A stretch of 64,000 nucleotides of DNA from an uncultured Desulfobacterales bacterium. GTDB lineage: Bacteria; Desulfobacterota; Desulfobaccia; Desulfobaccales; 0-14-0-80-60-11. The notes beneath the pieces are model-generated. The model was not told where the DNA came from, ran no database searches, and saw only the letters and a list, made by a program, of their open reading frames with translations. A program made the translations under genes and the position numbers. Location: assembly GCA_964480485.1 (NCBI GenBank), contig CAYZOP010000003.1:184057-248056 (forward strand), written 5' to 3'. Below are positions 10,897 to 42,701 of this stretch, piece by piece (position 1 is the stretch's first letter; every line of letters starts with the position of its first letter).

Positions 10897-11489
10897 GGGG
10901 GGATCCTCCTTTCTTGGCCCGGCCCGGCTGGGCCATCGCCTGCAAACCTGAGGGCTCACCGGTTGGGCTGGGTTCGCCAATTTCTTGCTGGTGGGGAAAG
11001 ATGCATCAGCCACGCCCCGAAGGCTCATTTTTTCCCTGATAATTCTAGGGATTTTGCCTGGCTGATTGACAAACCTGATTATTTCTGAAAGGGTATTGCT
11101 GAGATACTTATAAGGTAATTCCTTAGTCTATTACAAGGAGAAACCGCTCCCCAAAAATAATTCTTGCCCGGAAAAATATTGTTAAAAGAATTTTCTATTC
11201 AATTACAAAGGGATACATATTTTCGGCCAACCAGCCGGAGCGGTGGCCGGGGGGGTCGGGGGGAGGGAAATTGTTGCCGGCTCCACCAGCGATGGCCCCG
11301 GTTTTTTCCCCAAATTTTTGGATAGACCACTTTTGTGGTATGATAATCACATTGTCGTCAGCCATTTTGCACCAGAAGCCGGTAAGGTTTTCCCGGCTCA
11401 GGCGGTGGCCGTCTGGCACCGCCCTGCCGGGCTCAGGCCAAGCCCACGGGAAACGCGTCGTCTCCGGGTTCTGACAAGGCCACGGCCTC

Positions 11490-13826
11490 ATGGAAAAACA
11501 CCACAGCTGCCTGAACACCCGGGCTATCATCGAATATTTCCAGGAGCATTTCCCCCACCAGGTGGAGAGTTTGTTGAGTGGACTGGACGCGGAAATTTGC
11601 CGGCTCCCCAACCCCCGGGAGTTCCTCATGGAGACCAACAACTGGGTTTCCAGCCGCGTGGTCATCCAGATGTTTGACAATGCCAAGCGGCTCACCCGGG
11701 ATCCGGAAATCGCCTTCAAAATCGGCTTTGACTCCGCTTCCCGCAAAAAATTGGGCTACGTCCAGCGCATTATCCTGTTGGCTTACAAAAATCCCCGCAT
11801 GTCTGTCAAAAGAGTGCAGAAAATTAATGATAAATTTAATAGAAACAAGCGCATCGAACTTGTTAACAGTGATCGTACCAGCGCTACCATCAGGCTGCAC
11901 TGGTTTAAAGATATCCCCAGCGCGAAAGACTTTTGTCGGTTCAACAAGGGAATATATGCCGGCATCCCCACTATTTGGAATCTTCCCCCTGCCATTCTGG
12001 AAGAAACCCGGTGTTTTTTTCAGGGCGAACCTTATTGCGAGTATCACATCAAGTGGATAAAGAAATTCTCTGTAAGAGAACGGTTATTGAATTTTCTCGT
12101 TCCTTGGCGGGCCCTGAAATATACCATTGAGGAACTGGAGCGCGACAAGGATCTTCTCAGGGCAAAATTTGAAGAAGTCCATCGCTTGAATATTGAGCTC
12201 AGGGAAAAAATCGACGAACTCCTCAAGTTGCAGGAGGAGTTGCGCAAGAGTGAAGCGAAATTCCGCAACCTTCTGGATTACCTGCCTGGGGTGGCCGTCC
12301 AGGGTTATGACGCCCGGGGGCGGATTCTTTACTGGAACAAGGCCAGCGAGGAGATTTACGGGTATACTGCCGCTGAAGCCGTGGGACAGAGCGTCGAGAC
12401 CCTGATCATCCCCCCGGGGCTTACCGATTGGTTCCGGCGGGGTTTGCAGCAGGGGGCCGAAGCCTTCAGGAGCGGAGAGTTCCTGCCGCCCGGAGAGCAG
12501 TATCTGAAGCGCAAGGACGGCGGCCTCAGGCCCGTGCACTCCATCCACACGGTGGTCTGCCTGGACCAGAGCGAACCCCTGATGTTCCGCATCGACGTGG
12601 ACCTGACGGAGCGCAAGCGGGTGGAGGAAGAGCTCAGGAACTACCGGGACCACCTGGAAAAGCTCGTCCAGGAACGCACCGCCGAACTCACCGAGGTCAA
12701 CCTCAGTCTCCAACAGGAAATCCAAGGACACCAGCGCACCGAAAAGGCGCTCCGGGCCAGCGAAGAGCGGTTTCGCACCATCTTTGAAGGGGCTCCCGTG
12801 GGCATCGGCCTGAGCGACCTGGAGGGATGCTTCCTCACCGGCAACCCGGCTTTGGCCCGGATCCTGGGCTACAGCCTGGCCGAACTGCGGGGCTTGAACT
12901 TCAATGCCCTCTGCCACCCCGAGGAGGCGGCTGTGGGGGAGACCCTCTTTGGGGAACTGATCCGGGGAAACCGGCCGTTTTATGAGCGGGAAGGACGCTG
13001 CCGCCATCGCAACGGGTCATATCTCTGGTACTGGGTGCATGTCTCGCCCATTCGGGACACCGCGGGGATACCCCAGTTCGCCCTGTTCATGCTCAAAGAC
13101 ATCACCCGGGACAAGCAGGTTCAGGAAGAGATTCAGGCCTATCAGGAGCGGCTGCGCTCCCTGGCTTCTGAGCTGGCCCTGACCGAAGAGCGGGAGCGGC
13201 GCCGCCTGGCCGCCGACCTCCATGACCATATCGGCCAGATCCTGGCCATGGCCCAGATCAAGCTGGGGGCGATCCTGAACGAGGCACAGTCCCCCGCCGC
13301 CGAGGCCGCGGTCCACGAGATCCGGACCTTGCTCCGCCAGGCCATCCAATATTCCCGCTCCCTCACCTTTGAATTGGGCCTGCCGGTGCTCTATGATCTG
13401 GGGCTGGAAGCTGCGGTGGAATGGCTGGCCGACCAGATTCATGAGCAGCACGGCCTCCCCGTCCGGGTGACCCGGGACCAGCAACCCAAGCCCTTGGGGG
13501 AGGCGGCCAGCCTGCTCATCTTCCGGGTGCTGCGGGAATTGCTCATCAACGTGGTGAAACACGCTGACGCCTCCCGGGTGGAGATCGATATCCACCGGGA
13601 GGGAGACCATCTGGCTGTCCGGGTAACGGACGACGGCCGGGGATTCGATCCCAGGGAGGCCGCTTCCCTGGCAAGGCGCACCCCCGGGTACGGGTTGTTC
13701 AGCATCCGGGAGCGCCTGAGCCACTTGGGCGGCTATCTGGACATCCGCTCCGGGGCAGGCCGGGGCACCTCCGCCACCGTCGTGGTCCCCCTGGATCTGA
13801 ATAAGGAGATGATGGTGGCCAATTAG
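11490..13826 (+). CDS. sensor histidine kinase: V4R/DUF2378-like N-terminal domain, coiled coil, PAS domains, HisKA_3, HATPase_c
   Basis: The N-terminal roughly 190 aa end in LEETRCFFQGEPYCEYHIKW (V4R-like Cys pair). PAS segments follow (YWNKASEEIYGYTAAEAVGQS; FLTGNPALARILGYSLAELRG). The dimerisation/phosphoacceptor region is RRRLAADLHDHIGQ (NarX/DegS type). The ATPase region is GRGFD...GYGLFSIRERL. Confidence 0.9.
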   Translation: MEKHHSCLNTRAIIEYFQEHFPHQVESLLSGLDAEICRLPNPREFLMETNNWVSSRVVIQMFDNAKRLTRDPEIAFKIGFDSASRKKLGYVQRIILLAYKNPRMSVKRVQKINDKFNRNKRIELVNSDRTSATIRLHWFKDIPSAKDFCRFNKGIYAGIPTIWNLPPAILEETRCFFQGEPYCEYHIKWIKKFSVRERLLNFLVPWRALKYTIEELERDKDLLRAKFEEVHRLNIELREKIDELLKLQEELRKSEAKFRNLLDYLPGVAVQGYDARGRILYWNKASEEIYGYTAAEAVGQSVETLIIPPGLTDWFRRGLQQGAEAFRSGEFLPPGEQYLKRKDGGLRPVHSIHTVVCLDQSEPLMFRIDVDLTERKRVEEELRNYRDHLEKLVQERTAELTEVNLSLQQEIQGHQRTEKALRASEERFRTIFEGAPVGIGLSDLEGCFLTGNPALARILGYSLAELRGLNFNALCHPEEAAVGETLFGELIRGNRPFYEREGRCRHRNGSYLWYWVHVSPIRDTAGIPQFALFMLKDITRDKQVQEEIQAYQERLRSLASELALTEERERRRLAADLHDHIGQILAMAQIKLGAILNEAQSPAAEAAVHEIRTLLRQAIQYSRSLTFELGLPVLYDLGLEAAVEWLADQIHEQHGLPVRVTRDQQPKPLGEAASLLIFRVLRELLINVVKHADASRVEIDIHREGDHLAVRVTDDGRGFDPREAASLARRTPGYGLFSIRERLSHLGGYLDIRSGAGRGTSATVVVPLDLNKEMMVAN

Positions 13827-13842: not shown

Positions 13843-14478
13843 ATGGAAGAGCGGGTCAGCATTCCGGGGCCGGGAGTCTGCCTGGAGGGGCGGTTTCAGG
13901 CCGGGACCGGGGCCGGGGGGGTGATCATCACCCACCCCCATCCTCTCTACGGTGGCAGCATGGACAACAACGTGGTGTGGACGGCCCGGCAGGCCTTTGG
14001 GGCTCGGGGGGCGGCCACTTTGCGCTTCAATTTTCGCGGCGTGGGGCAGAGCACCGGGACTTTCGGCCAGGGACTGAAGGAAGTGGAGGACCTGGAGGCA
14101 GCCTTGGCCTGCTTGCGCGGCCGCACTCCGGGTCCCTATGCAGTGGTGGGATATTCCTTCGGCGCGGCGGTGGCAGCCCGGTCCTTGCTGACCGGTCTCC
14201 AGGGGGTGGCAGGCCTCCTCATCGCCCCGCCCATCGCCTTCATGGACCTGGCCTTTCTCCCCCGGGTGCCGCGGCTTGCCGGCCTCGTGGTGGGGGAGTT
14301 TGACGATCTGTGCCCCCTGCCGGAACTGAAGCGTCTGCTGTCGGGCCGACCCGAGCCAGTGCCTCTTTCGGTGGTGCCGTTGGCGGACCATTTTTTCAGC
14401 GGCAGAGAGGAGGCTTTATACCAGGTGCTGAAAGATTTTCCCCTGATGGGCTGGGGACCGGCTGATGCGCCCGCCTGA
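13843..14478 (+). CDS. alpha/beta hydrolase (COG2945-like)
   Basis: ITHPHPLYGGSMDNNVV and the nucleophile elbow GYSFGA. 211 aa. Confidence 0.8.
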   Translation: MEERVSIPGPGVCLEGRFQAGTGAGGVIITHPHPLYGGSMDNNVVWTARQAFGARGAATLRFNFRGVGQSTGTFGQGLKEVEDLEAALACLRGRTPGPYAVVGYSFGAAVAARSLLTGLQGVAGLLIAPPIAFMDLAFLPRVPRLAGLVVGEFDDLCPLPELKRLLSGRPEPVPLSVVPLADHFFSGREEALYQVLKDFPLMGWGPADAPA

Positions 14479-15682
14479 GTCGCCGGCGGATTCCGGGCCG
14501 TCCCCTGAGCAGGCCGTGTCCCGGGTGCTCATCGTCGCCTGGGACCGGACCTGCCTCATCCCGGTGTTCGGCGAGGCCGCCTTGTTCCGCCTGGTGCGCC
14601 TGGCCGCTTCCGAAAACCGGGCAGTCACGGTGTGGCTGGCCCCCGATCTCCTCACCGTCCTTGCCGGGAGGCCCCGGCAGGCGCAGACCCTGGTGAGCTG
14701 GCAGGTTTTGGATTTCGCCGAACTCCCGAAGGCCGGCCCTACCCTGGCAGCCGACCCCGACGAGACGCTTCTGGTACTTTCTGGGAACAGCGTCTGGGAC
14801 CGCCTCACCTTCCGGGCCGCCCTGGGAGCGGCCGGGAGGCACGGCCCGTTTTCTCCCTGTCGGCTGAAGGCCCGGGAGGTGACGGCAGCGGTGGCCGGAT
14901 GGCGGGAAACCGGCGGGAATCTGCCTGCCTTGGGTTCCACCCTGCCGGTTTTTCTCCACCGCCCGGAGGATTCCCGGCTGGCAGAGTCCCTGCTGGTGTC
15001 GGCCCTGGCGGCAGCCACCCAGGGAAGTGACGGCATGCTGGCCCGATGGGTGGACCGCCCCCTTTCCCGGCGGCTCAGCCCGGTGCTGGCGGCCCGGCGG
15101 ACGTCGCCCCACGCCGTCACGCTGGCGGGAACCACCGTCGGCTGTCTGGGGGCCCTGCTTCTGGCCCAGGGCGGTTATTGGCCGCATCTTTTGGGAGCCC
15201 TGCTGTTTCTGGCGGCGGTGGTCCTGGATGGGGTGGACGGCGAGGTGGCCCGCCTGACCGTGAGGGAGACGCGCTTCGGCCACTACCTGGACATCATCAC
15301 CGACAACCTGGTTCACCTGGCCGTGTTCTGCGGCATTGCCTGGGGGTTGTCCCGTCAGGCCGCCGATGTCCGCCACCTCTATGCCCTGGCCCTGCTGCTG
15401 CCAGGCTTCGGATTGAGCGCCCTGGCAGCCTACCTGGTGCTGACCCGAATCGAACTCCCGCCGGAGTGTTGGCCATCCTGGACGCGCCGGTTGGTGGCCG
15501 CCCTCAACAGCCGGGACTTTGCCTATGTGGTGGTGCTCCTGGCAATGATGGACCGGTTGGCCTGGTTTCTCTGGGGGGCGGCGGTGGGAAGCAATGTCTT
15601 TGCCGGCTGCTTGTTTCTGCTTTACCGACAATGCCGGCGCCCTCCGCCCCAAGGCGGCTTAAGTATAAGGAGACCCACGTGA
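14465..15682 (+). CDS. CDP-alcohol phosphotransferase, DIPPS-like, with N-terminal degenerate nucleotidyltransferase-like domain
   Basis: Perfect motif D-x2-DG-x2-AR-x8-G-x3-D-x3-D (DGVDGEVARLTVRETRFGHYLDIITD, nt 15227-15304). The preceding linker DGMLARWVDRPLSRRLSPVL resembles IPCT-DIPPS fusions. The N-terminal roughly 190 aa lack a GxGxRL loop. Confidence 0.85.
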   Translation: MRPPESPADSGPSPEQAVSRVLIVAWDRTCLIPVFGEAALFRLVRLAASENRAVTVWLAPDLLTVLAGRPRQAQTLVSWQVLDFAELPKAGPTLAADPDETLLVLSGNSVWDRLTFRAALGAAGRHGPFSPCRLKAREVTAAVAGWRETGGNLPALGSTLPVFLHRPEDSRLAESLLVSALAAATQGSDGMLARWVDRPLSRRLSPVLAARRTSPHAVTLAGTTVGCLGALLLAQGGYWPHLLGALLFLAAVVLDGVDGEVARLTVRETRFGHYLDIITDNLVHLAVFCGIAWGLSRQAADVRHLYALALLLPGFGLSALAAYLVLTRIELPPECWPSWTRRLVAALNSRDFAYVVVLLAMMDRLAWFLWGAAVGSNVFAGCLFLLYRQCRRPPPQGGLSIRRPT

Positions 15683-15801
15683 TGTCAACCGGCACCGCCA
15701 GAGCCTCGGGCTGGGGGCGGTGACTCCCCGGAAAGCTTCATGGCCCGCCGCGCCGGTGCCCGGTCAGTCTTTTTTTCACCCTTATGCCCAAGTGAGAACC
15801 T

Positions 15802-16509
15802 ATGTCCCCGATTGATTTGCGCCACGTTCAGGGAGTCCTCTTCGATCTGGGGGGCACCCTGGACGGCGACGGCGAACACTGGCTGAACCGCTTCTGGCTG
15901 CTCTACCAGAAGCATCTCCCGGAGGTGACCTTCTCCGAGCTGAAGGCCGCCTTTTACCGAGCCGAGGAGGTCTGCCTGGCCGATCCCCAGGTTGCCTCCC
16001 TTACCCTGCCCCGCCTGGTTGATTTCCATGTGGCCCGGCAGTTAGCCGCCCTGGGGCTTGGTGAGGCCGCCGCCCCCAAACTCTCACGGGAATTTCTGGA
16101 GGGCTGCCGCCAGGTTATCCGGCGCAACGCCTATCTTCTGCACAGTCTGGTTAACCGCTACCGGCTGGGGGTGGTCACCAACTGGTACGGCAACGCCGCC
16201 CGCCTCCTGGCTCAGGAAGCCATCGCCCTGTGGTTCGCAGTCATCGTGGATTCAGCCCAGGTGGGCGTGCGCAAGCCCGATCCGGCCATCTTCCGCCTGG
16301 CTGCTAAGGAACTGGGCTTCCCACCGGACCAGGTGGTTTATGTGGGGGACTCCTACGGCCAGGACATCCGGCCGGCCAAGGCCGCGGGCCTGATTACCGT
16401 GTGGCTCCGAAACGACGCCATGAGCGCGCCGCTGCCCCCGGACTTCGACCCCGCCCTGGCAGACTTCGAGATTCACCGCCTCACCGAATTGGAGGAACTC
16501 CTGCCGTGA
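15802..16509 (+). CDS. HAD-superfamily hydrolase
   Basis: Motif I is VLFDLGGTLD (D-x-G, so the second Asp is replaced). Motif IV is VYVGDSYGQDI. 235 aa. Confidence 0.85.
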   Translation: MSPIDLRHVQGVLFDLGGTLDGDGEHWLNRFWLLYQKHLPEVTFSELKAAFYRAEEVCLADPQVASLTLPRLVDFHVARQLAALGLGEAAAPKLSREFLEGCRQVIRRNAYLLHSLVNRYRLGVVTNWYGNAARLLAQEAIALWFAVIVDSAQVGVRKPDPAIFRLAAKELGFPPDQVVYVGDSYGQDIRPAKAAGLITVWLRNDAMSAPLPPDFDPALADFEIHRLTELEELLP

Positions 16510-17198
16510 AGGGAGGCATCATCGCCGCCGGGGTGGGCAGCCGCCTGGCCCAAGGCGGCGTGGTTGCTCCCAAACCCCTGGTGCGGGTGGCGGGCGATAC
16601 TCTCATCGGCCGGGTCATCCGGGAAATGGCCGCCGCCGGCGCCGCCTCGGTGGCGGTCATCACCACCCCGGCCTTCCCTCAAGTGGCTGCCTACCTGCGC
16701 CGGGAGCCCTGGCCTCTTCCGGTGTCCGTTACGGAATGGGCCAGCCCCCATTCTCTGGCCAGTCTGCTGGCGCTTAGGCCCTTTCTGGACGAACCCTTTG
16801 TGCTGTCCACGGTGGACGCCATCCTGGCCCCCGGCGCCCTGGCCCGCTTTGCCGCCGCCGCCCAAGCTGCCGCCGCTGACGGAGCCCTGGCCCTCACCTC
16901 CTGCATCGACGACGAAAAGCCGCTGTATGTGGAGCTGGGGCCTGACCACCGGGTGCTCTCCGTGGGCCGGGGGAAAAGCCCCTGGATCACCGCGGGCTGC
17001 TATGCCTTTACGCCCCGGGTGTTCGACTTCGAGGCCGCGGCCCGGGCCCGGCGGTTGTCGGCCCTGCGGCAGTTCCTGGCCTTCCTGGCGGAGGCTGGCT
17101 TCACCCTGACGGGAATCGACGTGGGTCCGGCGGTGGACGTGGACCACCCTGAGGACCTCGCCCGGGCCGAGGCGTTTCTGAGATCCGGCGTCTTCTGA
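16506..17198 (+). CDS. nucleotidyltransferase (NTP transferase fold), candidate inositol-1-phosphate cytidylyltransferase
   Basis: The GTG start at 16506 overlaps the HAD stop (GTGA). GIIAAGVGSRL is the GxGxRL nucleotide-binding loop, followed by KPLVRVAG. The substrate is inferred from context only. Confidence 0.75.
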   Translation: MKGGIIAAGVGSRLAQGGVVAPKPLVRVAGDTLIGRVIREMAAAGAASVAVITTPAFPQVAAYLRREPWPLPVSVTEWASPHSLASLLALRPFLDEPFVLSTVDAILAPGALARFAAAAQAAAADGALALTSCIDDEKPLYVELGPDHRVLSVGRGKSPWITAGCYAFTPRVFDFEAAARARRLSALRQFLAFLAEAGFTLTGIDVGPAVDVDHPEDLARAEAFLRSGVF

Positions 17199-17392
17199 AA
17201 GAGGGAGGTGGAGGCCCCCGGCCAGCCCCCTCAGGCTCCCTCCCCCAACCCCTGATTGGGAGGCTGATGGGCGGGTTTGCCCAAAGACCGGAGCGCCGCA
17301 CTCCCCCAGGCCTCCCCGCACCGGCGGTTAGCCGGGCCCCTTCCTCATTTTGGGGATGACAAGGGGGCCGGCGACCTGATAGAAAATACCAT

Positions 17393-18226
17393 TTGGCTGA
17401 CGCGATGCTTCGACCTGAGCGCACCATCGTCGGCATCTACCGGGAGACCGCCCTGTCCCCCGGCAAGGTGGAAGCCGACGCCGCCATCTTAAACGAGGTG
17501 CTGGCCGGCCTGGAAACCGCCGGCTGGAAGACCCTCACCCTCTCTGCCGACGACCTGCCCCAGAGGCCGCCGGCGGCCAGGGGGGTCTTGCACCTGGCCC
17601 AGGGGCCTGAGGCCCTGAAGCGCCTCATAGCCTGGGAGGCTGCGGGCCTGAGGCTCATCAATTCGCCCCAGGCGGTCCGTCGCTGCTACCGGCGGTTTCT
17701 GCCGCCCATCATGGCGAAGGCCGGGGTGCCTTACCCGGAGACCCGCCTGTACGGCCGGCTGCAGGCCGAGGCCGACTTCCCCCGGGAGTTTCCCGGCCCC
17801 GGCTGGCTGAAGCGGGCGGAAATCCACGCCGAGGGCCCCGGCGATGTGCGCCTGGTGCATACCCTGGGCGAGGCTTGGGAGGTATTGGGGGACTTCCGAG
17901 CCCGGGGCATCGACGCCTTGGTCTGGCAGGAGCACCTCGCCGGCCGGGAGATAAAATTTTACGGCGTCGGCCCGGGACGGTTTTTTTGGGCTGCGGCCGC
18001 CGACGGCGAGGCCGACCTGCCGCAGGCAGAGAGGGCGCGGCTGGCCTCCCTGGCCGTCAAGGCCGCCGGGGCGGTGGAGCTCACGGTCTTCGGCGGCGAT
18101 GCCATTCTCACCCCCGAGGGGAACCCCGTACTCATTGATCTGAACGACTGGCCCAGCTTTTCCCGCTGCCGGGAGGCCGCGGCCAAGGAGATTGTGGCCC
18201 ATGTCCTTGACACCTTCGCAGACTGA
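17393..18226 (+). CDS. ATP-grasp fold protein, function unknown
   Basis: The C-terminal FGGDAILTPEGNPVLIDLNDWPSF is the ATP-grasp metal-binding strand (D-x-N variant). 277 aa. An alternative start exists at 17405. Confidence 0.7.
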   Translation: MADAMLRPERTIVGIYRETALSPGKVEADAAILNEVLAGLETAGWKTLTLSADDLPQRPPAARGVLHLAQGPEALKRLIAWEAAGLRLINSPQAVRRCYRRFLPPIMAKAGVPYPETRLYGRLQAEADFPREFPGPGWLKRAEIHAEGPGDVRLVHTLGEAWEVLGDFRARGIDALVWQEHLAGREIKFYGVGPGRFFWAAAADGEADLPQAERARLASLAVKAAGAVELTVFGGDAILTPEGNPVLIDLNDWPSFSRCREAAAKEIVAHVLDTFAD

Positions 18227-19550
18227 ACCAACCCCTTCCTCCCGCTCCCGGGAGCTGTTTCAGGCCGAACTCCCGTATCTCTCCCCGGGGTTCCAGAACG
18301 TGGCCCTGCTGGCCGAACTGGTGCTGGACCGGGGCCGGGGGCGCCACCTGTATGACGTGGACGGCAACCGCTATCTGGACTTCATGGCGGGCATCGGCGT
18401 CTGTTCCCTGGGTTACAGCCACCCGGCCTGGGTCAAGGCGGTGAGCGAGCAGGTGGCCAAACTTACGGTGGGGAGCTTCGCCACGGAAAACCGGGGGAAG
18501 TTTTTAAGACGCCTGGCCGAAGTCGCCCCGGGGGAGCTCTCCCAAACCATGCTCTACTCCGGCGGCGCCGAGGCGGTGGAGGCGGCCATCCGCCTGGCCA
18601 AAGCCTACACCGGCAAATTCGAGGTCCTGGCCTTCTGGGGCGGCTTCCACGGCAAGACCGGCGGCGTCCTCGGCCTCATGGGCAGCACCTTCAAGCAGCA
18701 TTGGGGGCCGCTGCATCCCGGCCTCCACCTGGCGCCCTACGCCTACTGCGAGCGCTGCCCCTTCAAGCTCACCTACCCGGGCTGCGGCCTCCACTGCCTG
18801 GACTTCGCCCGGGAGGTCCTCCGGCTGAACACCGCCGGCGCCCTGGCCGCCATCCTGGTGGAGCCGGTGCAGGGCACCGCGGGCAACGTGGTGCCGCCCC
18901 CGGAATTCCTGCCGGGGGTGCTGGAGATCTGCCGGGAGCAGGGGGCGCTTTTGATTGCCGATGAAATGCTCACCGGCTTCGGCCGCACCGGTCGGCTCTT
19001 CGGGTGTGAGCACTTTGGGGTGGTCCCCGACGTCATCACCATAGGGAAGGGCATGGGGAGCGGCTTCCCGGTGAGCGGACTGATCTCCACGCCGGAGATC
19101 ATGCGGGCCAAACCCTACGCCAACCCGTCCGCCGCCTCTTCCAGCTACGGGGGCAACCCCCTGGCGGGCACCGCGGCCTGGATCACCCTGGAGACCCTGC
19201 TGGCCGAAAAGATCGTGGAAAATTCCGCCAAGGTGGGCGACTACCTGCTCCACCGCCTCCTGGAACTCCGGGAACGCTACCCCTTTATCGGCCGGGTGCA
19301 GGGCAAGGGCCTGATGATCGGCCTGGAATTCGTGCGGCACCGGGAGCATGACCGCACCCTGCTCCCCGGCAAGGTCATGGAGGTGGTCTTCAAGGAGTCG
19401 CTGAAGCGGGGCCTGATCAGCATGAACTACACCGCCCAGTTCCGCATCAACCCGCCCCTGACCCTCACCGAGAGCGAGGCCGACGAGGGGGTGCGCATCC
19501 TGGATGAGGTCTTCGCTCTGGTGGAGCGACAGGAACTCCACCGCCGGTGA
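18201..19550 (+). CDS. class-III PLP-dependent aminotransferase
   Basis: LDFMAGIGVCSLGYSHP, ADEMLTGFGRTGRLFG and VITIGKGMGSGFPVSG (PLP lysine). ATG at 18201 with AAGGAG upstream. The gene overlaps the ATP-grasp 3' end by 26 nt. Confidence 0.9.
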   Translation: MSLTPSQTEPTPSSRSRELFQAELPYLSPGFQNVALLAELVLDRGRGRHLYDVDGNRYLDFMAGIGVCSLGYSHPAWVKAVSEQVAKLTVGSFATENRGKFLRRLAEVAPGELSQTMLYSGGAEAVEAAIRLAKAYTGKFEVLAFWGGFHGKTGGVLGLMGSTFKQHWGPLHPGLHLAPYAYCERCPFKLTYPGCGLHCLDFAREVLRLNTAGALAAILVEPVQGTAGNVVPPPEFLPGVLEICREQGALLIADEMLTGFGRTGRLFGCEHFGVVPDVITIGKGMGSGFPVSGLISTPEIMRAKPYANPSAASSSYGGNPLAGTAAWITLETLLAEKIVENSAKVGDYLLHRLLELRERYPFIGRVQGKGLMIGLEFVRHREHDRTLLPGKVMEVVFKESLKRGLISMNYTAQFRINPPLTLTESEADEGVRILDEVFALVERQELHRR

Positions 19551-19703
19551 GGCTGAGAATGGCTGGGGCGGGGGGAACCGGACCCCCCCTGCCCTGAAAC
19601 TCCCTGCAAGGGGCTGGGGGAGCGGTTTGGAAAGGGGGAAGGGGTCTGGGGCCCTGGGCCCCCGCTCCCCCCTTAGGTTCATCATGGTTTTCAGGATTTG
19701 GAG

Positions 19704-20744
19704 ATGTCGCCGCCTGTCCCTGAGCAACCTCTGACCGGCGCACTGGTGGGCTTCGGCAAGGTGGCGGAGATGGCCCATCTGCCGGCGTTTCAGGCCACCC
19801 CGGGCTTCCGCCTGGCCGCCGTGGCTGATCCTCTGCCTGAGCGCCGGGCCCGGGCCCGGGAGCTGCTGCCCGATATCCCGGTCTATCCCGACCAGGCCGC
19901 GCTCCTGGCGGGCCAGGCCCCCCTGGATTTCGTGGACCTCTGCACTCCGCCCGCCGACCATTCCCCACTGGCCCTGGCGGCCCTTGCCGAAGGCTGCCAT
20001 GTCCTCTGCGAAAAGCCGCTGACTCTTAATCTTTCGGAACTGGCCGTTCTGGCCGACGCGGCCGCAGCCCGCGGCCGGGCCCTGGTGACGGTGCACAACT
20101 GGAAATACGCCCCCATCATCGCCACCGCCCTGGATTGGCTCAGGGCCGGCGCAGTGGGGGAGGTGAGGCACCTGGAATGGGAGGTGCACCGCACCTCGGG
20201 CAGCGGCGGCGGCCTTACCGACTGGCGTCAGCAGGGGGGGAGCAACACCGGGGGCATCCTGGTGGACCACGGCTGGCATGCCTTTTACCTCCTCCTGGGC
20301 TTGGCCGGGGCCGCGCCCCAGGCGCTCAGGGCCAGGATGGCGCCCCTCCCCGAGGCGCCCCGGGGGGTGGAGCACGAGGCCGAGGTGGACCTGAGATTCC
20401 CCGGCGCCCGGGCCCGCCTCTTTCTCACCTGGCGGGCTGCGGTCCGGCGCAATTGGGGCAGGGTGGCGGGAACCACGGGGGAGCTGGTGCTGGACGACGA
20501 CCGGCTTATTCTCCGCCGGGCCCATCAGCCGGAGGCAGTGCAGCGGTTTCCGGAGAAATTGAGCGGCGGCTCCCACCACCCCCAATGGACCTTGGGCGCC
20601 TTGGAGGAGTTTGCCGGCGAAATCCGGGAGCCCGGCCGCCGGGGGCGGAATCTGGCGGAAGCTGCGGCCTGCGCCCGCCTCATCGACCTGGCCTACCGCT
20701 CCCATGCCGCCGGCGGGGCTTGGCAGGACTATCCCTCCGGATGA
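19704..20744 (+). CDS. Gfo/Idh/MocA family oxidoreductase
   Basis: GALVGFGKVAEMAHLPAF (Rossmann fold) and GCHVLCEKPL (EKP motif). Confidence 0.85.
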   Translation: MSPPVPEQPLTGALVGFGKVAEMAHLPAFQATPGFRLAAVADPLPERRARARELLPDIPVYPDQAALLAGQAPLDFVDLCTPPADHSPLALAALAEGCHVLCEKPLTLNLSELAVLADAAAARGRALVTVHNWKYAPIIATALDWLRAGAVGEVRHLEWEVHRTSGSGGGLTDWRQQGGSNTGGILVDHGWHAFYLLLGLAGAAPQALRARMAPLPEAPRGVEHEAEVDLRFPGARARLFLTWRAAVRRNWGRVAGTTGELVLDDDRLILRRAHQPEAVQRFPEKLSGGSHHPQWTLGALEEFAGEIREPGRRGRNLAEAAACARLIDLAYRSHAAGGAWQDYPSG

Positions 20745-21715
20745 AACTGCGCCTGGATTTCAATCTCCTGGCGGGCTGCCTGGGGGCCCTGGTGCTGGCG
20801 GTCCTGCTGTACCGCCTGGGGCCGGCCGCGGTTCTGGCGGAACTTGGCCGGGTGGGCTGGGGCTGGGCCCTCATCATCGGCCAGGAAATCCTGCCCATCC
20901 TGGCCAACACCTGGGGGTGGCACTGCACCTTCCTCAAGCCCCTCCGCCAGGTTCCCCTGGGGCGTCTGTTCCGCATGCGCCTGGCCGGAGACGGCTTCAA
21001 TTATCTCATCCCCAGCGCCACCCTGGGGGGAGAGGTTCTCCGCGTCAACCTCCTGCGCCGGGAGATGGCCGTGGGGGCCGCCGCCGCCTCGGTAACCGTG
21101 GCCAAATTCACCCAGTTCCTGGGCCAGGCCCTCTTCATCGCCTTGGGCCTGATGTTGGCCGCGCCCTTTGCCCCCCTAAAGCCCGGTCTCCTGCCGGTGC
21201 TCTGGGCCCTCCTGCTGGGCTGCGTCATCTTTCTGGGGCTGGTGCTCCTGGGCCTGTGGCGGGGGATGTTTTCCCGGCTCACCCGCCTGCTCCTGGCCTG
21301 GCTGCCGGCGCGGCTCAAGGGCTACCTCCCGGTGGACCAGGCGGCGGAGCTGGACCGGGACATTTCCGCCTTCCTCAGGGACGACCAGCCCGCCTTCTGG
21401 GCCTCCACCCTTAGCTTCGGCCTGGCTTGGGCGCTAGGCTCCGTGGAGGTGCTCCTCATCTTTTATTTCTTAGGGCTGCCGCCGGACCTGGCCACCGCCG
21501 TCACGGTGGAGACCTTGAGCGTCTTCATCGACGCGCTGCTCTTCTTTGTGCCCGGGAAGCTGGGCACCCAGGAGGGCGGCAAGGTCCTTATCTTCATAAG
21601 CCTGGGCCTGCCGCCGGTCTCCGGCCTGGCTTTCGGCCTCATCCGCCGGATCCGGGAGCTCACCTGGGCCGGCCTGGGCGTGGCCTGCCTGTTTACCTTT
21701 CGGGAAGACCGTTAA
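20741..21715 (+). CDS. UPF0104 / lysylphosphatidylglycerol-synthase-TM-like (flippase-like) membrane protein
   Basis: The ATG at 20741 overlaps the oxidoreductase stop (ATGA). MKLRLDFNLLAGCLGALVLAVLLYRLG... is polytopic, and FFVPGKLGTQEGG is typical of the family (from memory). Confidence 0.75.
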   Translation: MKLRLDFNLLAGCLGALVLAVLLYRLGPAAVLAELGRVGWGWALIIGQEILPILANTWGWHCTFLKPLRQVPLGRLFRMRLAGDGFNYLIPSATLGGEVLRVNLLRREMAVGAAAASVTVAKFTQFLGQALFIALGLMLAAPFAPLKPGLLPVLWALLLGCVIFLGLVLLGLWRGMFSRLTRLLLAWLPARLKGYLPVDQAAELDRDISAFLRDDQPAFWASTLSFGLAWALGSVEVLLIFYFLGLPPDLATAVTVETLSVFIDALLFFVPGKLGTQEGGKVLIFISLGLPPVSGLAFGLIRRIRELTWAGLGVACLFTFREDR

Positions 21716-21882
21716 GGAGCGGGCCGGGAGCGTTGGCCTCCCCGCCCCCCCTCAAACTCCTCTCCCAGTCCCCCAAATTAACCGGGGAAGGCCGGGTCGA
21801 TGACCCTGCCTTCCCCGGTTTCCCATTCAGGATTGGGGGTGGGGGCAAGGGGCCGCACCCTTTACCCCCTCCCCTGTAGGCG

Positions 21883-23034
21883 TTACCGTTCCCTCTTCCC
21901 CTGGATGAATTCCTCCACCCCCTTGGCGGCTTCTTCGTCCGGCATGGTTTCGGGAGGGTGTTTCATGGTGTAGGCGGAGATGGAGGTCAGGGGCCCCCCA
22001 ATGCCCCGGTCCCGGGCCAGTTTGGCGCAGCGCACCGCGTCAATCATACAGCCGCCGCTGTTGGGGGAGTCCTCCACCGAGAGGCGCATCTCCAGATGCA
22101 TGGGGAAACCGCCGAATCCCCGGGCCTCAAGGCGCAGAAAAGCGACTTTGTTGTCCTTCTGCCAGGGCACATAATCCGAAGGGCCTACGTGCAGGTTGTT
22201 GGCCTCGAAATCCGGGGGGAGCAGGGAGCTCACCGCCTCCGTCTTGGAGCGCTTCTTGGTGGCCAGCCGCTCCCGGTTCAGCATGTTCAGGAAGTCGGTG
22301 TTGCCGCCGACGTTGAGCTGATAAGACCGGTCCACCGTGAGGCCCCGCTGCCGGAAAAGGTGCACCAGGGTGCGGTGCAGGATGGTGGCGCCCAACTGGC
22401 TCTTGACGTCGTCCCCCACCACCGGAATCCGGGCCTCGACAAACCGCCTGGCCCACTGGGGGTCGGAAACAATGAAGGTGGGCATGCAGTTGATGAAGGA
22501 GACCCCAGTCTTTAGGCAGCATTCGGCATAATGGCGGGCGGCCTGCTCGGAGCCAACCGGCATGTAGTTGAGCAAGACTTCGGCGCCGCTCTCTTTAAGC
22601 ACCTGGGCCACGTCCACCGGCGGCGCTTCGGCCACGACAAAGGTCTGCTCCGGGGGGTACTGGGCCATGTGCGGGGAATAGCCGTCCAACACCGGGGCCA
22701 TCTGCACGGTTACCGGGATCTCCGGGAAATCTTCAACGATACGGTAACAGCAGTTGGGAGGGGCGAAGATGGCCTCGGAGACCGGCCGCCCCACTTTGCG
22801 GCGGTCGATGTCAAAGGCGGCCACCACCTTCAAGTCACCGGGGGCATAGCCGCCGATATCCGGGTGCATCAGCCCCGGGGGCCATGCTCCGGCCTGACCC
22901 TGAAACCTGCGATAATACTCAATTCCCTGCACCAGGGCGCTGGCGCAGTTCCCCACTCCAGCGATGGCAATCCGGATTTTTCCCACGAGGGCTTCTTTTC
23001 CACAAGGTAAGTGTGCGCGGCGGGACTGACCCAC
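21883..23034 (-). CDS. ino1: myo-inositol-1-phosphate (inositol-3-phosphate) synthase
   Basis: KIRIAIAGVGNCASALVQGIEYY..., a roughly 380-aa prokaryotic MIPS type. The start is uncertain: ATG at 23034 or GTG at 22986. Confidence 0.9.
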   Translation of the reverse strand: MGQSRRAHLPCGKEALVGKIRIAIAGVGNCASALVQGIEYYRRFQGQAGAWPPGLMHPDIGGYAPGDLKVVAAFDIDRRKVGRPVSEAIFAPPNCCYRIVEDFPEIPVTVQMAPVLDGYSPHMAQYPPEQTFVVAEAPPVDVAQVLKESGAEVLLNYMPVGSEQAARHYAECCLKTGVSFINCMPTFIVSDPQWARRFVEARIPVVGDDVKSQLGATILHRTLVHLFRQRGLTVDRSYQLNVGGNTDFLNMLNRERLATKKRSKTEAVSSLLPPDFEANNLHVGPSDYVPWQKDNKVAFLRLEARGFGGFPMHLEMRLSVEDSPNSGGCMIDAVRCAKLARDRGIGGPLTSISAYTMKHPPETMPDEEAAKGVEEFIQGKRER

Positions 23035-23298: not shown

Positions 23299-24000
23299 TT
23301 ACCGGAGAAGAGGCAGGTCGATGACCTCCCGACGATCTTGCGTCCGTTTCCCGGCCATCGCCGCGACTCGCCGGGGGTTGGCGAGGCGGCCCGGAAACTG
23401 CTCCAGCAGCGTCAGGCAGTCTTCCACCTTGTCAGCCAAACCGACAAAAATCCGGCGGGCGGCTTCGTCCTGCTGAAGAGTCGCCGGATTCCCGGCCAGT
23501 TGCTTCAGTGCTCCAGCCACGGAAAGGAGCCGCTGGTGGCCGACCTTGGCCAGATGGCGCAAGGCAAACCAGGCCCGGAGGTTGTAGGCGGCGGCCAGCC
23601 CCTCAGCCCCGGCCCGGGTGCGGCGATACGACAGGCCCAGGCAACCGGCCACCCGTCGGCCCACTGCCTCCGGGCTGGCCGGGATGACGAGGTAGTCATC
23701 CACCCGGAGGTGAAACACCACGGGAGGCGGAACCTCATCCTCCCTTCCCAAGACCATCACCGCTGGAGCGGGGGCGAGTTCCATGGCCGCTTCCACCACG
23801 GCCAAGCCGGCCGGCATCGCCTTCCCCAGTTCCACTAAGACCACATCGATGGCCTCGCAGCCCATCACTTCCAGGGCGCAGTCCGCCTGGGAGGTAAAAA
23901 GAACCTGATACCCCTGTTCCTGGAGGCTGGCGGCCAGATCCTGGGAAAACTGCGATCTCGCCGCCACCAGCAGAACCTCCGGTTTCCAGAGAGCCCCCAT
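23299..24000 (-). CDS. pseudo-receiver domain protein with helical C-terminal domain
   Basis: The layout is receiver-like, but key residues are replaced: LLVAARSQ instead of DD, VLVELG instead of the phospho-Asp, and YLVIP instead of KP. The C-terminal roughly 130 aa are helical. The start is uncertain (ORF open to 24093). Confidence 0.55.
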   Translation of the reverse strand: MGALWKPEVLLVAARSQFSQDLAASLQEQGYQVLFTSQADCALEVMGCEAIDVVLVELGKAMPAGLAVVEAAMELAPAPAVMVLGREDEVPPPVVFHLRVDDYLVIPASPEAVGRRVAGCLGLSYRRTRAGAEGLAAAYNLRAWFALRHLAKVGHQRLLSVAGALKQLAGNPATLQQDEAARRIFVGLADKVEDCLTLLEQFPGRLANPRRVAAMAGKRTQDRREVIDLPLLR

Positions 24001-24272
24001 TCGGTGACCGCCGCCCATCGAGTGGCTGAGGCCGGCCTGAGGCCTGAGATGGTGCCCGTATCTGGCTTTTCTGCCCGTTCCCTTACGCGTCATGACCTTC
24101 CCTCCTGGAAACCACTGCAGTCATGCCCCGGCTGGACCATGGCGGCCAACTGCAGCCATCCTGGCGTCTGCCGGGGAACGAAGCGGCGGCTTCAGGCCAA
24201 AGCCCATTCAAGGTCTGCCGCCCCGGGGTGGCCGGGAAGAGGCCGCACCCATGGGGCAAGGTCTGCATGCCC

Positions 24273-24791
24273 TCAAAACGGGGTCAGCAGGGGAGAGACA
24301 AACCTGCCCCCGGCCAGAACCTGCCGGATGGCGCCGATGAGGTCCGTATCGGTATCTTCTTTCAACAGATAGCCGTTGGCGCCAGCCTCCAGAGCCTGCT
24401 CACAATACTCCCGGTTGCGGTGCATAGTCAGGACCAACACCTTGATGTCCGGGTGGGCTGCTTTGAGGCGGCGGGTGGCTTCAATGCCCGGCAACCGGGG
24501 CATGGTGATATCCATGATGACGAGGTGGGGGCGGCAGGTTTCCAATAGCGCCAGAAGTTCCAGGCCATCGCGAGCCTCCCCGATGACCTGGAAGTCGGCT
24601 GCACCTTCCAGGAATCGCCTGACCAGCTGGCGAAAGAGCTGGTGATCTTCGGCGATGACAATAGTCCAAGGACGAGGCGCAGCATCTTCAGAGGTTCGGG
24701 CGGGATGCCCTCCAGCACTCATCAGCGTCCCCAAATTTTTCCGGGATGGCTCCATGACTCTTATCTGGGCATCCAGTAGTTCCGTCATCAC
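24273..24791 (-). CDS. stand-alone response-regulator receiver protein (NarL-type REC without HTH)
   Basis: IVIAEDHQLF, HLVIMDITMP, VLVLTMH and GYLLKED retain all receiver catalytic positions. The protein ends where the neighbouring paralog continues into its LuxR HTH. The start is uncertain (24791, 24755 or 24722). Confidence 0.8.
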   Translation of the reverse strand: MMTELLDAQIRVMEPSRKNLGTLMSAGGHPARTSEDAAPRPWTIVIAEDHQLFRQLVRRFLEGAADFQVIGEARDGLELLALLETCRPHLVIMDITMPRLPGIEATRRLKAAHPDIKVLVLTMHRNREYCEQALEAGANGYLLKEDTDTDLIGAIRQVLAGGRFVSPLLTPF

Positions 24792-24900
24792 GTGAGTAGC
24801 CGTATTGTATGGAAAGGGCTCCCGTTGAGTCCATAGTACTTAACGACTATTTTAATGATGAGTAAAACTACTTAGGCCGGAGGGGGGAAGGGCCCGGGAG

Positions 24901-25548
24901 TCAGGTGGCGTAGCCTTTTTGCAGGGCGTAGCGCACCAGGTCGGTGGTCTTTCTCAGATTCAGCTTCCGCATGATGTTGGCCCGGTGATTCTGCACCGTA
25001 CGGTCGCTGATGAAGAGTAGCTCTGCAATCTCTTTGCTGGATTTGCCTTCGGCGATGAGCTTGAGTATCTGCTTTTCCCTCAGCGTCAGCGGCTCGGTCA
25101 GCGACGGCCCCCGGCCCTGATATTCGCTGATGAGCAGGTCCTGGAGGCGGGGGGCCATCAGGGGCGAAAGGTATTTTTCTCCGGATTGGAGGGTCCTGAC
25201 GGCCTGGAGCAGTTCCTGGGAGGCATCCTCTTTGACCAGGTAGCCGTCGGCCCCGTTCCGGAAGGCGTGGTAGAGATATTCCTGTTCCTTGTGCATGGTC
25301 AGCACCAGGACCTTGACGGCGGGGGTCAGGGATTTGATTTCTCCCAGCACCTCCATGCCCCGCATCTGAGGCATGGAGATATCCAGCACCACCAGCTGGG
25401 GGGTGACGGTCTTCAGCAGATTGAGGAGCTCCAGGCCGTTGTTGGCTTCCCCGATGATGTGGACTTCGGGCAGCTCCTCCAGGATCCGCCGGATGCCTTG
25501 GCGGAACATGGGATGATCATCGGCCAAAACGACGGTGACGGGCTTCAT
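24901..25548 (-). CDS. NarL/FixJ-family response regulator (REC + LuxR-type HTH)
   Basis: VVLADDHPMF, LVVLDISMP and GYLVKED, then LTLREKQILKLIAEGKSSKEIAELLFISDRTVQNHRANIMRKL. Confidence 0.95.
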   Translation of the reverse strand: MKPVTVVLADDHPMFRQGIRRILEELPEVHIIGEANNGLELLNLLKTVTPQLVVLDISMPQMRGMEVLGEIKSLTPAVKVLVLTMHKEQEYLYHAFRNGADGYLVKEDASQELLQAVRTLQSGEKYLSPLMAPRLQDLLISEYQGRGPSLTEPLTLREKQILKLIAEGKSSKEIAELLFISDRTVQNHRANIMRKLNLRKTTDLVRYALQKGYAT

Positions 25549-28902: not shown

Positions 28903-29170
28903 CTTCCAACTCTGGCCTTAACGCTCCAAGACTTCCCATGAATCTCTTGCAATACTTTTCGAACCGAGCCGTGGACTTCTTTAAATTTTTCTTGACCCAA
29001 ACAACCACGCCGCTCCAGGGGTTCCTATCCGGGCCGGCGCGGCCGGAGGAAGCCTCCGGCCCTGGCAGGCCTGGCGCCTGGCGCCTGCAGCACCCTTCTT
29101 GTCGTCTCACTTTTTGCCGGGATGTGGTATGGTGAGGGCACCTTGCCGGAGAGGCTTTCAGGAGGAGGCC

Positions 29171-40624: not shown

Positions 40625-40750
40625 CGATGGTCCTATTGTCAATTATTTGACTAATCTCCACTTCTTTGACAGGAGGGAAAGTCTGGGCAAAAGGATAAAG
40701 TCAATAAAATCAATGATATATGTGCCGTAGCAGCCAAATTTTCCCTTGGC

Positions 40751-41275: not shown

Positions 41276-41281
41276 GGGGCA

Positions 41282-42265: not shown

Positions 42266-42293
42266 CGCCGGCCTGAAGAAGGGAGAAGCACGC

Positions 42294-42701
42294 ATGGCAG
42301 AAGGTTCCCCCCCCGGTCCCCCCCTCGACCTCGACTGGGAGCAGGCCCTAAGCGAGCAGGCCGCCCCAGTTGGTTCGGATAAGGCACCGACCGTCAGGCC
42401 CGCCTCCGGGCCGGCAGATCCGGGCATGACCACAGAGGGAGCGCCCAATCTCTCCCTGCTCCTGGACATCCCCCTGGAGATCACCGCCGAACTGGGACGG
42501 ACCCGGATGATCATCAACGACCTGCTGCAACTGGGGCAGGGCTCCGTTATCGAGCTGAATAAATTGGCAGGGGAGCCCCTGGAAATCCTGGTCAACCAAA
42601 AGCTCATCGCCCGGGGGGAGGTCGTGGTGGTTAATGAAAAATTCGGTATCCGCCTCACCGACATCATCAGTCCGGTAGAACGCATCAAACAATTGGGGTA
42701 G
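42294..42701 (+). CDS. fliN: flagellar motor switch protein FliN
   Basis: The C-terminal SpoA domain is [70 protein letters not shown]. Confidence 0.9.

Follow-up and report, generated by a model that had tools for sequence, protein, structure and literature searches.

A conserved gene cluster around an orphan ATP-grasp enzyme, predicted to make a modified inositol lipid

What do an ATP-grasp enzyme, a class-III aminotransferase, a Gfo/Idh/MocA oxidoreductase and a polytopic UPF0104 membrane protein make together when their genes stand in a row? The question is raised by a 64,000-nucleotide stretch of the genome of an uncultured Desulfobacterales bacterium (GenBank assembly GCA_964480485.1, contig CAYZOP010000003.1, positions 184,057 to 248,056 of the forward strand), here called the window, in whose numbering all positions are given. 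An initial annotation, made from the sequence alone, had read the four genes as a functional module for an amide-linked decoration of an inositol-derived lipid or solute. We find that the four belong to a single biosynthetic unit of nine genes, which occupies 13843-23034. We propose that the enzymes encoded here build a head group of modified inositol phosphate and then join it, along a Kennedy-type route through a CDP-alcohol, to a membrane lipid; we give this reading about as much credence as doubt. Within it, the inositol link is strongly supported, a lipid is the favoured product, and one ring hydroxyl is most likely replaced by an amine, which would give a lipid type not yet described.

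Eight of the nine genes run co-directionally on the plus strand over 13843-21715, and the ninth, encoding myo-inositol-1-phosphate synthase (MIPS), converges on them (Table 1). Four of the junctions overlap. The genes for the alpha/beta hydrolase (ABH) and the CDP-alcohol phosphotransferase (CDPOH) share 14 nucleotides (nt), and those for the HAD hydrolase and the nucleotidyltransferase (NTP transferase) share a GTGA. The last 26 nt of the ATP-grasp gene lie within the aminotransferase gene, whose ATG at 18201 precedes the ATP-grasp stop at 18224-18226. Lastly, an ATGA joins the stop of the Gfo/Idh/MocA (Gfo) gene to the start of the UPF0104 gene. This ATGA was read in the window sequence at 20741-20744, exactly where it had first been placed; the ATP-grasp start, previously set at 17393, is corrected to 17405, and that of the aminotransferase gene is likewise adjusted, to 18201. 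For the NTP transferase, ATP-grasp and aminotransferase genes, the starts follow those annotated publicly for identical proteins and agree with the window sequence. All four families named at the outset are present, three of them above Pfam cut-offs and the ATP-grasp enzyme by an AlphaFold model and Foldseek.

Table 1. Genes of the cluster, with their positions in the window and the family evidence for each (aa, amino acids; PLP, pyridoxal phosphate)
Product	Position	Strand	Length and remarks	Evidence
Alpha/beta hydrolase (ABH)	13843-14478	+	211 aa	Pfam Abhydrolase_6, 38.8 bits
CDP-alcohol phosphotransferase (CDPOH)	14465-15682	+	405 aa	Pfam PF01066, 50 bits (cut-off 22)
HAD-IA family hydrolase	15802-16509	+	235 aa	Pfam Hydrolase and HAD_2
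Nucleotidyltransferase (NTP transferase), IPCT-like	16506-17198	+	230 aa, GTG start	Pfam NTP_transf_3, 48 bits
ATP-grasp enzyme, orphan	17405-18226	+	273 aa	AlphaFold (AF2) model and Foldseek
Class-III (omega-type) PLP aminotransferase	18201-19550	+	449 aa	Pfam Aminotran_3 (PF00202), 326.7 bits (cut-off 30.5)
Gfo/Idh/MocA NAD(P)-dependent oxidoreductase	19698-20744	+	348 aa, alternative ATG at 19704	Pfam PF01408 (N-terminal), 71.5 bits, and PF22725 (C3), 64.7 bits, both above cut-off
UPF0104 / LPG_synthase_TM polytopic membrane protein	20741-21715	+	324 aa	Pfam PF03706, 98.9 bits (cut-off 33.4), residues 9-307
Myo-inositol-1-phosphate synthase (MIPS)	21883-23034	-	convergent with the operon	Pfam Inos-1-P_synth, 120.6 bits

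Relatives of the ATP-grasp gene were sought in one genome per species, and the conservation of the other genes around it was recorded. Such relatives are encoded by 502 species genomes, and in a library of 1.84 billion representatives the family comprises 561 clusters at E<=1e-30. Eighty loci were retrieved, and 58 of them, covering at least eight phyla, were well flanked, with at least 4 kb upstream and at least 5 kb downstream. A census of these 58 loci by tblastn and multi-seed phmmer placed an NTP transferase gene near the ATP-grasp gene in 58/58 and an HAD gene in 57/58; next in frequency came genes for a CDP-alcohol transferase (54/58), Gfo (53/58), the aminotransferase (52/58) and UPF0104 (31/58); MIPS lay within 10 kb in 16/58. 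The invariant partners of the ATP-grasp gene are the HAD and NTP transferase genes, both outside the four-gene module as first drawn, and UPF0104 is the least constant among the operon members named there. All but one of the 53 Gfo hits accompany an aminotransferase gene, the hit in locus L080 being a divergent paralogue on the opposite strand. The genes for ATP-grasp, aminotransferase and Gfo adjoin on the same strand in 52 of the 58 loci, and contiguity on this scale across phyla puts the arrangement far from chance. Far from being scattered in relatives, the genes keep the order HAD-NTP transferase-ATP-grasp-aminotransferase-Gfo in Thermodesulfobacteriota, Verrucomicrobiota, Binatia, Methylomirabilota, Acidobacteria, Elusimicrobiota, Polyangiales and Betaproteobacteria. 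The ABH gene is accessory, with orthologues in this place only in loci L001, L006, L007, L010 and L087.

Ten loci, which represent three distinct clades in the tree of ATP-grasp proteins, have neither the aminotransferase nor the Gfo gene and keep HAD-NTP transferase-ATP-grasp together with UPF0104 and a CDP-alcohol transferase. One of them, in Sphingobacterium psychroaquaticum, reads MIPS-NTP transferase-ATP-grasp-CDPOH-UPF0104-HAD-HAD; the Bacteroidota branch of the ATP-grasp family yielded 5579 hits, including Dyadobacter, Pedobacter and Sphingobacterium. The core cluster exists with or without the aminotransferase/Gfo pair, which is an optional addition, and MIPS is directly adjacent in cluster types with and without the pair, in several phyla. 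Another kind of variation was found in loci of Verrucomicrobiota, Acidobacteria and Betaproteobacteria, 20 of which have Spt-like and GNAT genes flanking the cluster (20/58 for each gene) and six a gene for a sphingolipid desaturase (6/58). These loci carry two or three CDP-alcohol transferase genes, a second NTP transferase gene and genes for a 427-aa GNAT and an Spt-like class I/II aminotransferase; in some of them the desaturase is a sphingolipid delta-4 desaturase. Examples are L074 (5259-15710), L041, L048, L055, L059, L067-L069 and L085. Such sphingolipid-gene surroundings suggest a ceramide anchor in Verrucomicrobiota and the other soil phyla. In about 20 loci of the same three groups, neither UPF0104 nor MIPS lies within 10 kb.

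Evidence for the inositol link includes the adjacency of MIPS, the likeness of the NTP transferase to IPCT and the closeness of CDPOH to IPCT-DIPPS and AF2299. None of this context had entered the initial annotation, whose suggestion of an inositol-derived product it upholds. MIPS scores 427.7 bits against TIGR03450, below the cut-off of 638, and is predicted to supply the cyclitol. The NTP transferase aligned over its full length with the Archaeoglobus fulgidus IPCT (2XME, E 8e-6) and with IPCT-DIPPS (4MND, 2e-5), the alignment to IPCT being no better than that to glucose-1-phosphate thymidylyltransferase, and it reaches 43.5 against the NCBIfam IPCT-DIPPS model (cut-off 580). Judging from its sequence, it would make the CDP-activated head group. 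CDPOH has a degenerate, nucleotidyltransferase-like cytosolic N-terminal domain followed by a catalytic domain with six transmembrane segments (6-TM), an architecture of the IPCT-DIPPS/AF2299 type. Its translation contains the signature DGvDGEvAR...GhylDiitD, and D255, G256, D258, G259, A262, R263, G272, D276 and D280 are invariant. AF2299 and IPCT-DIPPS are its best sequence matches in the PDB, and the best whole-chain Foldseek match of its AlphaFold model (pLDDT 88) is IPCT-DIPPS (4MND, E 9e-11). The N-terminal domain alone has weak fold matches to GlmU, HddC, MurU and IPCT and no GxGxR nucleotide-binding motif in its sequence, and the protein scores 73 against the NCBIfam IPCT-DIPPS equivalog (cut-off 580). 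By prediction, CDPOH hands the CDP-activated head group on to an acceptor lipid. The region 13843-23034 thus brings together MIPS, an IPCT-type cytidylyltransferase and a CDP-alcohol transferase, and the same trio occurs in relatives.

Which reaction the ATP-grasp enzyme catalyses is a further part of the question. Its AlphaFold model (pLDDT 93) confirms the three-domain ATP-grasp fold, Foldseek matching the model to ArgX, LysX, RimK and Ddl at E 2.6e-15 to 1e-13 and TM ~0.74. The protein exceeds no Pfam or NCBIfam family cut-off. The RimK and LysX models all stay below theirs (TIGR00768, 28.2 vs 143.4; LysX, 17.5 vs 275.6; Pfam RimK, 12.6 vs 21), and the RimK loop R-x-N...GG falls on a gap in the alignment. 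The invariant residues include K136, R137, H141, D147, K184, D232, D245, N247 and D248; the Mg/ATP-binding acidic triad and lysines are present, D232, D245, N247, K136 and K184 being invariant in alignments of 27 and 19 sequences that represent both cluster types. Residue 66 behaves differently: it is Q in 71/71 loci with the aminotransferase/Gfo pair and R, K or E in 10/10 without it, a change that maps to three independent clades. In the AlphaFold model, the third strand of the N-terminal domain is followed by a loop that contains Q66. No column of the NTP transferase, HAD, CDP-alcohol transferase or UPF0104 proteins tracks the pair as residue 66 does. Judging from this covariation, the ring position altered by the pair appears to be one that the ATP-grasp enzyme recognizes.

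The enzyme also occurs fused to its neighbours. Fusions of NTP transferase and ATP-grasp form seven independent clusters at 50% identity, a triple HAD-NTP transferase-ATP-grasp fusion of 802 aa is found in Elusimicrobia (MBI4055633.1), and an ATP-grasp-CDP-alcohol transferase fusion of 700 aa is encoded on four contigs. The fusion proteins come from public metagenomes and metagenome-assembled genomes (P0360, P0383, P0387, P0422, P0426, P0434, P0480, P0404 and P0437). Being joined to the cytidylyltransferase, HAD and CDPOH, the ATP-grasp enzyme is placed in the activation of a precursor. Fusions of a kinase to a nucleotidyltransferase are a frequent pattern, examples being HldE and FKP. Moreover, the ATP-grasp gene is a core gene that retains the same invariant residues where the amine-forming pair is missing, so that its basic chemistry cannot require that amine, nor can its job depend on acylating it. 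The amide decoration first ascribed to this enzyme has accordingly become a minority reading. Its core status, its fusions and residue 66, in parallel with kinase-nucleotidyltransferase pairs elsewhere, favour a cyclitol or cyclitol-phosphate kinase. From this context, as distinct from homology, we rate a kinase a little short of an even bet and consider an amide or ester ligase doubtful. Assignment to the ITPK family (Pfam Ins134_P3_kin) by homology was tried and rejected, as scores stay below the gathering cut-off, with 5/27 and 2/19 members matching and a best E of 0.0019. A PDB profile search aligned ITPK4 and ITPK1 with the ATP-grasp enzyme only over the C-terminal ~45 residues, and ITPK is absent from the top 50 Foldseek matches of the model.

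The aminotransferase and the Gfo protein are best considered as a pair. Oxidation by a Gfo-type dehydrogenase followed by transamination is the standard route from a secondary alcohol to an amine, as in the inosose and inosamine steps of the streptomycin and rhizopine pathways and in the action of GnnA/GnnB on UDP-GlcNAc. Class-III aminotransferases act on ketones and aldehydes without an alpha-carboxylate. The translation of the aminotransferase contains the motifs DEmltGfGRTG and TiGKGmGsG, the latter with the PLP lysine. PF00202 is the sole Pfam family reported for it, with no DegT/DnrJ/EryC1/StrS family, in agreement with the earlier remark that the enzyme is of class III, a type unusual for inosose amination. 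It reaches no NCBIfam equivalog cut-off, and the solved structures closest to it belong to archaeal broad-specificity racemases, GABA aminotransferases and putrescine aminotransferases. The Gfo protein carries a Rossmann motif (GfGkvA) and an EKP motif (lCEKPl). Against the IolG equivalog TIGR04380 it gives 48.3 bits (cut-off 355), over the N-terminal domain alone, and its PDB neighbours are a mixture of sugar and inositol dehydrogenases. In its genomic context the pair would plausibly oxidize and then transaminate to give an amino-deoxy-inositol head group; this is the most economical reading, and the amino head group put forward in the initial annotation is still the best account of the pair.

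Two proteins of the cluster would act later, around the membrane. Motif I of the HAD protein is D-x-G-G-T(-L-D), with glycine at Asp+2, and DxGGT occurs in 77/79 orthologues. Canonical HAD phosphatases have a general acid at Asp+2; without it, the protein may not be an ordinary phosphatase, and its designation as a head-group phosphatase is a working guess. A fusion of CDP-alcohol transferase and HAD in Prevotella veroralis (Heaver et al. 2022, PMC9246714) suggests that HAD works during the membrane step or directly after it. The UPF0104 protein consists of the flippase-like domain alone, with no aminoacyl-transfer domain, and scores 16.6 bits against the bifunctional MprF model NF033480 (cut-off 600). 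It is predicted to translocate the finished lipid. HpnL is also a UPF0104 member, and HpnO is a class-III aminotransferase. A hopanoid link, with UPF0104 as HpnL, was rejected, since the protein scores 140.7 against the HpnL model, below the cut-off of 195.65, and no hopanoid genes are found among the Pfam-scanned genes of the window. A UPF0104 homologue, BT_1521, accompanies the inositol-lipid cluster of Bacteroides thetaiotaomicron, the listed genes of which include no ATP-grasp (Heaver et al. 2022, PMC9246714). This suggests that UPF0104 goes with inositol lipids as such and not with aminoacylation, and, given its presence in barely more than half of the loci, the central place once accorded to an MprF-like gene is not borne out.

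Built on the families, folds, gene order, overlaps, conservation across phyla, optional pair, fusions and covariation of residue 66, all of which come directly from the data, the proposed route would run as follows. MIPS would provide an inositol phosphate. The Gfo enzyme would oxidize a ring hydroxyl to a ketone, which the class-III aminotransferase would convert to an amine, yielding an inosamine-type cyclitol. The soluble ATP-grasp enzyme would then act on the cyclitol, most likely as a kinase that either installs the phosphate or shifts its position, and the IPCT-like cytidylyltransferase would activate this phosphate with CTP. The IPCT-DIPPS-like membrane transferase would pass the phospho-cyclitol to a lipid alcohol, presumably a diacyl- or ether-glycerol in the window organism and a ceramide in Verrucomicrobiota. 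HAD would remove a leftover phosphate at some step, and UPF0104 would move the lipid across the membrane. A lipid is held to be more likely than a solute because of the sphingolipid-gene neighbours and the flippase-like gene in the cluster.

Several points weigh against this route. The folds nearest to the ATP-grasp enzyme are carboxylate-amine ligases and not kinases, its likeness to inositol-phosphate kinases is confined to the C-terminal Mg-binding motif, and the residue-66 signal is based on just three independent transitions. HAD is without the general acid of a canonical phosphatase. The sequences of the Gfo protein and the aminotransferase do not reveal their substrates, no equivalog cut-off being reached, and the Verrucomicrobial loci have no MIPS gene within 10 kb. 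Inositol phospholipids are reported, from experiments on Rhodothermus marinus, to be made through CDP-inositol, with MIPS, IPCT and BEPIS (Jorge, Borges & Santos 2015, via PMC4587543). As outlined in PMC4587543, this route is described with these three proteins only and with no kinase or HAD, and a kinase is therefore not obviously required. By the same token, the invariance of HAD and ATP-grasp in the present loci is unaccounted for by a three-gene CDP-inositol route.

Other explanations have to be weighed against the same data. The head group might be an inosamine to which the ATP-grasp enzyme, as a carboxylate-amine ligase, adds an amino acid or another acid at the amine, with UPF0104 flipping the product; where the aminotransferase is missing, an ester would be made on a ring hydroxyl instead. 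The fold, closest to the ligases LysX, ArgX, RimK, Ddl and PsnB, speaks for this, as do weak NCBIfam hits to the RimK family, the 26-nt overlap with the aminotransferase gene and the way in which residue 66 follows the presence of the amine-forming pair. MprF-type domains, moreover, translocate aminoacylated lipids. However, the 10 pair-less loci of three clades, that of Sphingobacterium among them, conserve the enzyme just as well and with identical invariant residues, and the inositol sphingolipid of Sphingobacterium is reportedly undecorated ceramide phosphoinositol. Bacteroidota species with an alternative inositol-lipid cluster likewise make plain PI-dihydroceramide (PMC9246714), their carriage of the ATP-grasp gene being not verified. 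UPF0104 stands beside the B. thetaiotaomicron cluster with no listed ATP-grasp and is absent from 27/58 loci, the RimK loop is missing in the alignment, and the fusions join the ATP-grasp enzyme to the cytidylyltransferase, at a precursor-activation step. We regard this explanation as unlikely overall.

A soluble product is less probable still. The cluster would then make a phosphodiester compatible solute related to di-myo-inositol phosphate (DIP), such as an aminated DIP analogue, with CDPOH as a DIPPS-like enzyme and HAD as the final phosphatase. MIPS and IPCT-like, DIPPS-like and phosphatase proteins do make up the DIP gene set, the best structure and sequence matches of CDPOH are IPCT-DIPPS and AF2299, NCBIfam NF041135 gives hits, and several of the relatives are hot-spring metagenome-assembled genomes. 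We nevertheless find a solute improbable in view of the sphingolipid-gene surroundings in 20 loci of mesophilic soil phyla and the flippase-like membrane protein within the operon. Bacteroidota with the NTP transferase, CDP-alcohol transferase and HAD of the alternative cluster make inositol lipids (PMC9246714), and, according to the outline in PMC4587543, CDP-inositol is turned into a lipid by BEPIS, which belongs to the CDP-alcohol transferase family. It is also conceivable, at a slightly lower level of probability again, that the pair and the ATP-grasp enzyme do not work on inositol, and that another amino-alcohol phosphate (of aminopentanetetrol, serinol or amino-sugar type) is CDP-activated while MIPS is a mere neighbour or serves a parallel inositol lipid. 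IPCT-like (COG1213) cytidylyltransferases accept phosphocholine, phosphoglutamine and phosphoglycerate (PMC12275187), MIPS is near the ATP-grasp gene in just 16/58 loci, and the Verrucomicrobial loci have their two or three CDP-alcohol transferases and second NTP transferase. Aminopentanetetrol head groups exist, and the literature retrieved names no biosynthetic genes for them. Against a non-inositol substrate stand the immediate adjacency of MIPS in both cluster types in several phyla, the correlation of the core cluster in Bacteroidota with inositol lipids (PMC9246714), and a cluster with no pentose- or serine-pathway genes. Aminopentanetetrol was also considered as the principal head group and set aside, as the adjacency of MIPS favours a C6 cyclitol, and it is kept within this minor alternative only.

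If the preferred reading of an amino-inositol lipid made through a CDP-activated cyclitol is followed to its full extent, the cluster would define a new class of aminocyclitol-phosphate lipids, a 'phosphatidyl-inosamine' in Thermodesulfobacteriota and Binatia and a 'ceramide-phospho-inosamine' in soil Verrucomicrobiota and Acidobacteria. These would be made by a Kennedy-type CDP-cyclitol route with a new ATP-grasp family of cyclitol kinases and a class-III inosose aminotransferase, and in gut Bacteroidota the 'alternative' inositol-lipid pathway would depend on the same ATP-grasp enzyme for an essential step that has so far escaped notice. Taken jointly, these propositions are tentative, and we lean toward doubting that all of them hold. 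The literature that was searched, which did not extend to subscription journals, holds no description of this gene combination, of inosamine or amino-inositol lipids, or of an ATP-grasp enzyme with inositol lipids. Bacterial inositol lipids are considered rare, and the CDP-inositol route has been shown in one organism and proposed in gut Bacteroidota. With this cluster, an extended version of the route would be present in no fewer than 502 species genomes, including abundant soil Verrucomicrobiota and anaerobic Thermodesulfobacteriota. It contains two conserved, unexplained enzymes that current pathway schemes leave out, the orphan ATP-grasp and the HAD without a general acid. The predicted lipid is measurable, its amino-inositol head group being zwitterionic like that of phosphatidylethanolamine and cyclitol-based. 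Cultured carriers are available in Desulfobacca acetoxidans DSM 11109, whose locus L087 has all nine genes of the window cluster, and Desulfoferrobacter suflitae DRH4 (L025), with the version lacking the amine in Sphingobacterium, Dyadobacter and Pedobacter.

The surroundings of the cluster in the window were also surveyed. Upstream, 7458-13826 encodes a FadL-type outer-membrane transporter, a member of the MR/MLE enolase superfamily, an LpxL-like acyltransferase and a PAS/HisKA_3 histidine kinase, and the order of these genes next to the cluster is kept in the close relatives L001, L010 and L087. The LpxL-like (Lip_A_acyltrans) acyltransferase, at 9898-11028 on the minus strand, may act on the lipid of the cluster. 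Long open reading frames (ORFs) overlap here on opposite strands (9955-11088, plus; 9898-11028, minus); a Pfam hit and homologues in relatives were found only for the minus-strand frame, and the plus-strand one is probably a shadow ORF of high-GC DNA. Downstream of MIPS, 23299-28427 on the minus strand encodes a receiver-domain protein, a LuxR-type response regulator and a 960-aa GAF/PAS HisKA_3 kinase. The receiver-domain protein has no Pfam hit at the default threshold and NCBIfam response-regulator hits only. With a kinase upstream and these proteins downstream, regulators lie on both sides of the cluster. Farther along, at 29099-36708 on the plus strand, the gene for a 1742-aa bacterial alpha-2-macroglobulin precedes that for a PBP1C-type transglycosylase/transpeptidase, a known paired arrangement. 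An N6/N4 DNA methyltransferase is encoded at 36745-38028 on the minus strand, with no obvious restriction partner among the scanned neighbours. A 701-aa ORF with coding-like GC content at third codon positions (GC3) and no Pfam family at E<=1e-4 lies at 40643-42748 on the minus strand, just upstream of the flagellar export genes fliP, fliR, flhB and flhA (42818-48069). The remainder of the window is ordinary chromosome, with glyQ, cytochrome bd, flagellar export, relA, proS and purH genes. By amino-acid identity, its proteins indicate a Thermodesulfobacteriota member resembling Desulfobaccales/Syntrophobacterales. A tRNA at 2136-2207 is the sole Rfam match in the window, and a promoter and terminator scan of it gave nothing decisive, terminator-like sites being rarer than in shuffled sequence.

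Parts of the cluster resemble several known systems. In the streptomycin and rhizopine pathways, the early steps are those of an inositol dehydrogenase, an inosose aminotransferase and an inosamine kinase, and the chemistry proposed here is the same, that is, to oxidize, transaminate and phosphorylate. The window differs in that its aminotransferase is of class III and not of the DegT/StsC type, its putative kinase is an ATP-grasp enzyme and its product would be CDP-activated and lipid-linked instead of glycosylated; the cluster has no amidinotransferase or glycosyltransferase genes. UPF0104 shares the Pfam family PF03706 with the MprF flippase domain and with HpnL; at its length of 324 aa, however, it lacks the C-terminal aminoacyl-transfer domain of MprF. 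CDPOH and the A. fulgidus IPCT-DIPPS (4MND) and AF2299 have in common the layout of a nucleotidyltransferase-like domain and six transmembrane segments and the signature DGx2AR...Gx3Dx3D. Unlike IPCT-DIPPS, CDPOH has an N-terminal domain without GxGxR and is accompanied by a separate NTP transferase gene, and its product is probably a lipid and not a solute. The R. marinus system, as outlined in PMC4587543, is like the window of Kennedy type, with a cytidylyltransferase and a membrane enzyme of the CDP-alcohol family clustered with MIPS. This likeness is drawn from the published description. The R. marinus operon is described there with three genes, without HAD, ATP-grasp, aminotransferase, oxidoreductase or UPF0104.

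The closest known relative of the cluster is the putative alternative inositol-lipid cluster of Bacteroides vulgatus and Prevotella, for which a CDP-inositol intermediate was proposed (Heaver et al. 2022, PMC9246714). In that set, the neighbours of MIPS are genes for an NTP transferase, a CDP-alcohol phosphatidyltransferase and an HAD, and a lysyl-PG-synthase-like gene lies not far away (PMC9246714). The window has MIPS, the NTP transferase, the CDP-alcohol phosphatidyltransferase, HAD and a lysyl-PG-synthase-TM protein (BT_1521-like) in common with it, and also the proposed logic, in which CDP-inositol is formed and then transferred to a lipid. The ATP-grasp is unmentioned in the text and supplements of Heaver et al., whose published pathway is genetically unverified. 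B. vulgatus may carry one, predicted as the gene between BVU_RS13095 and BVU_RS13105, judging indirectly from locus-tag spacing and synteny with Sphingobacterium. The Sphingobacterium locus joins the two descriptions, as it has every gene family of the alternative cluster together with an orthologue of the ATP-grasp gene. Beyond the alternative cluster, the window has the class-III aminotransferase, the Gfo/Idh/MocA oxidoreductase and the alpha/beta hydrolase. It is a known kind of cluster into which the aminotransferase/Gfo pair has been inserted, plus a hydrolase that is found in close relatives only.

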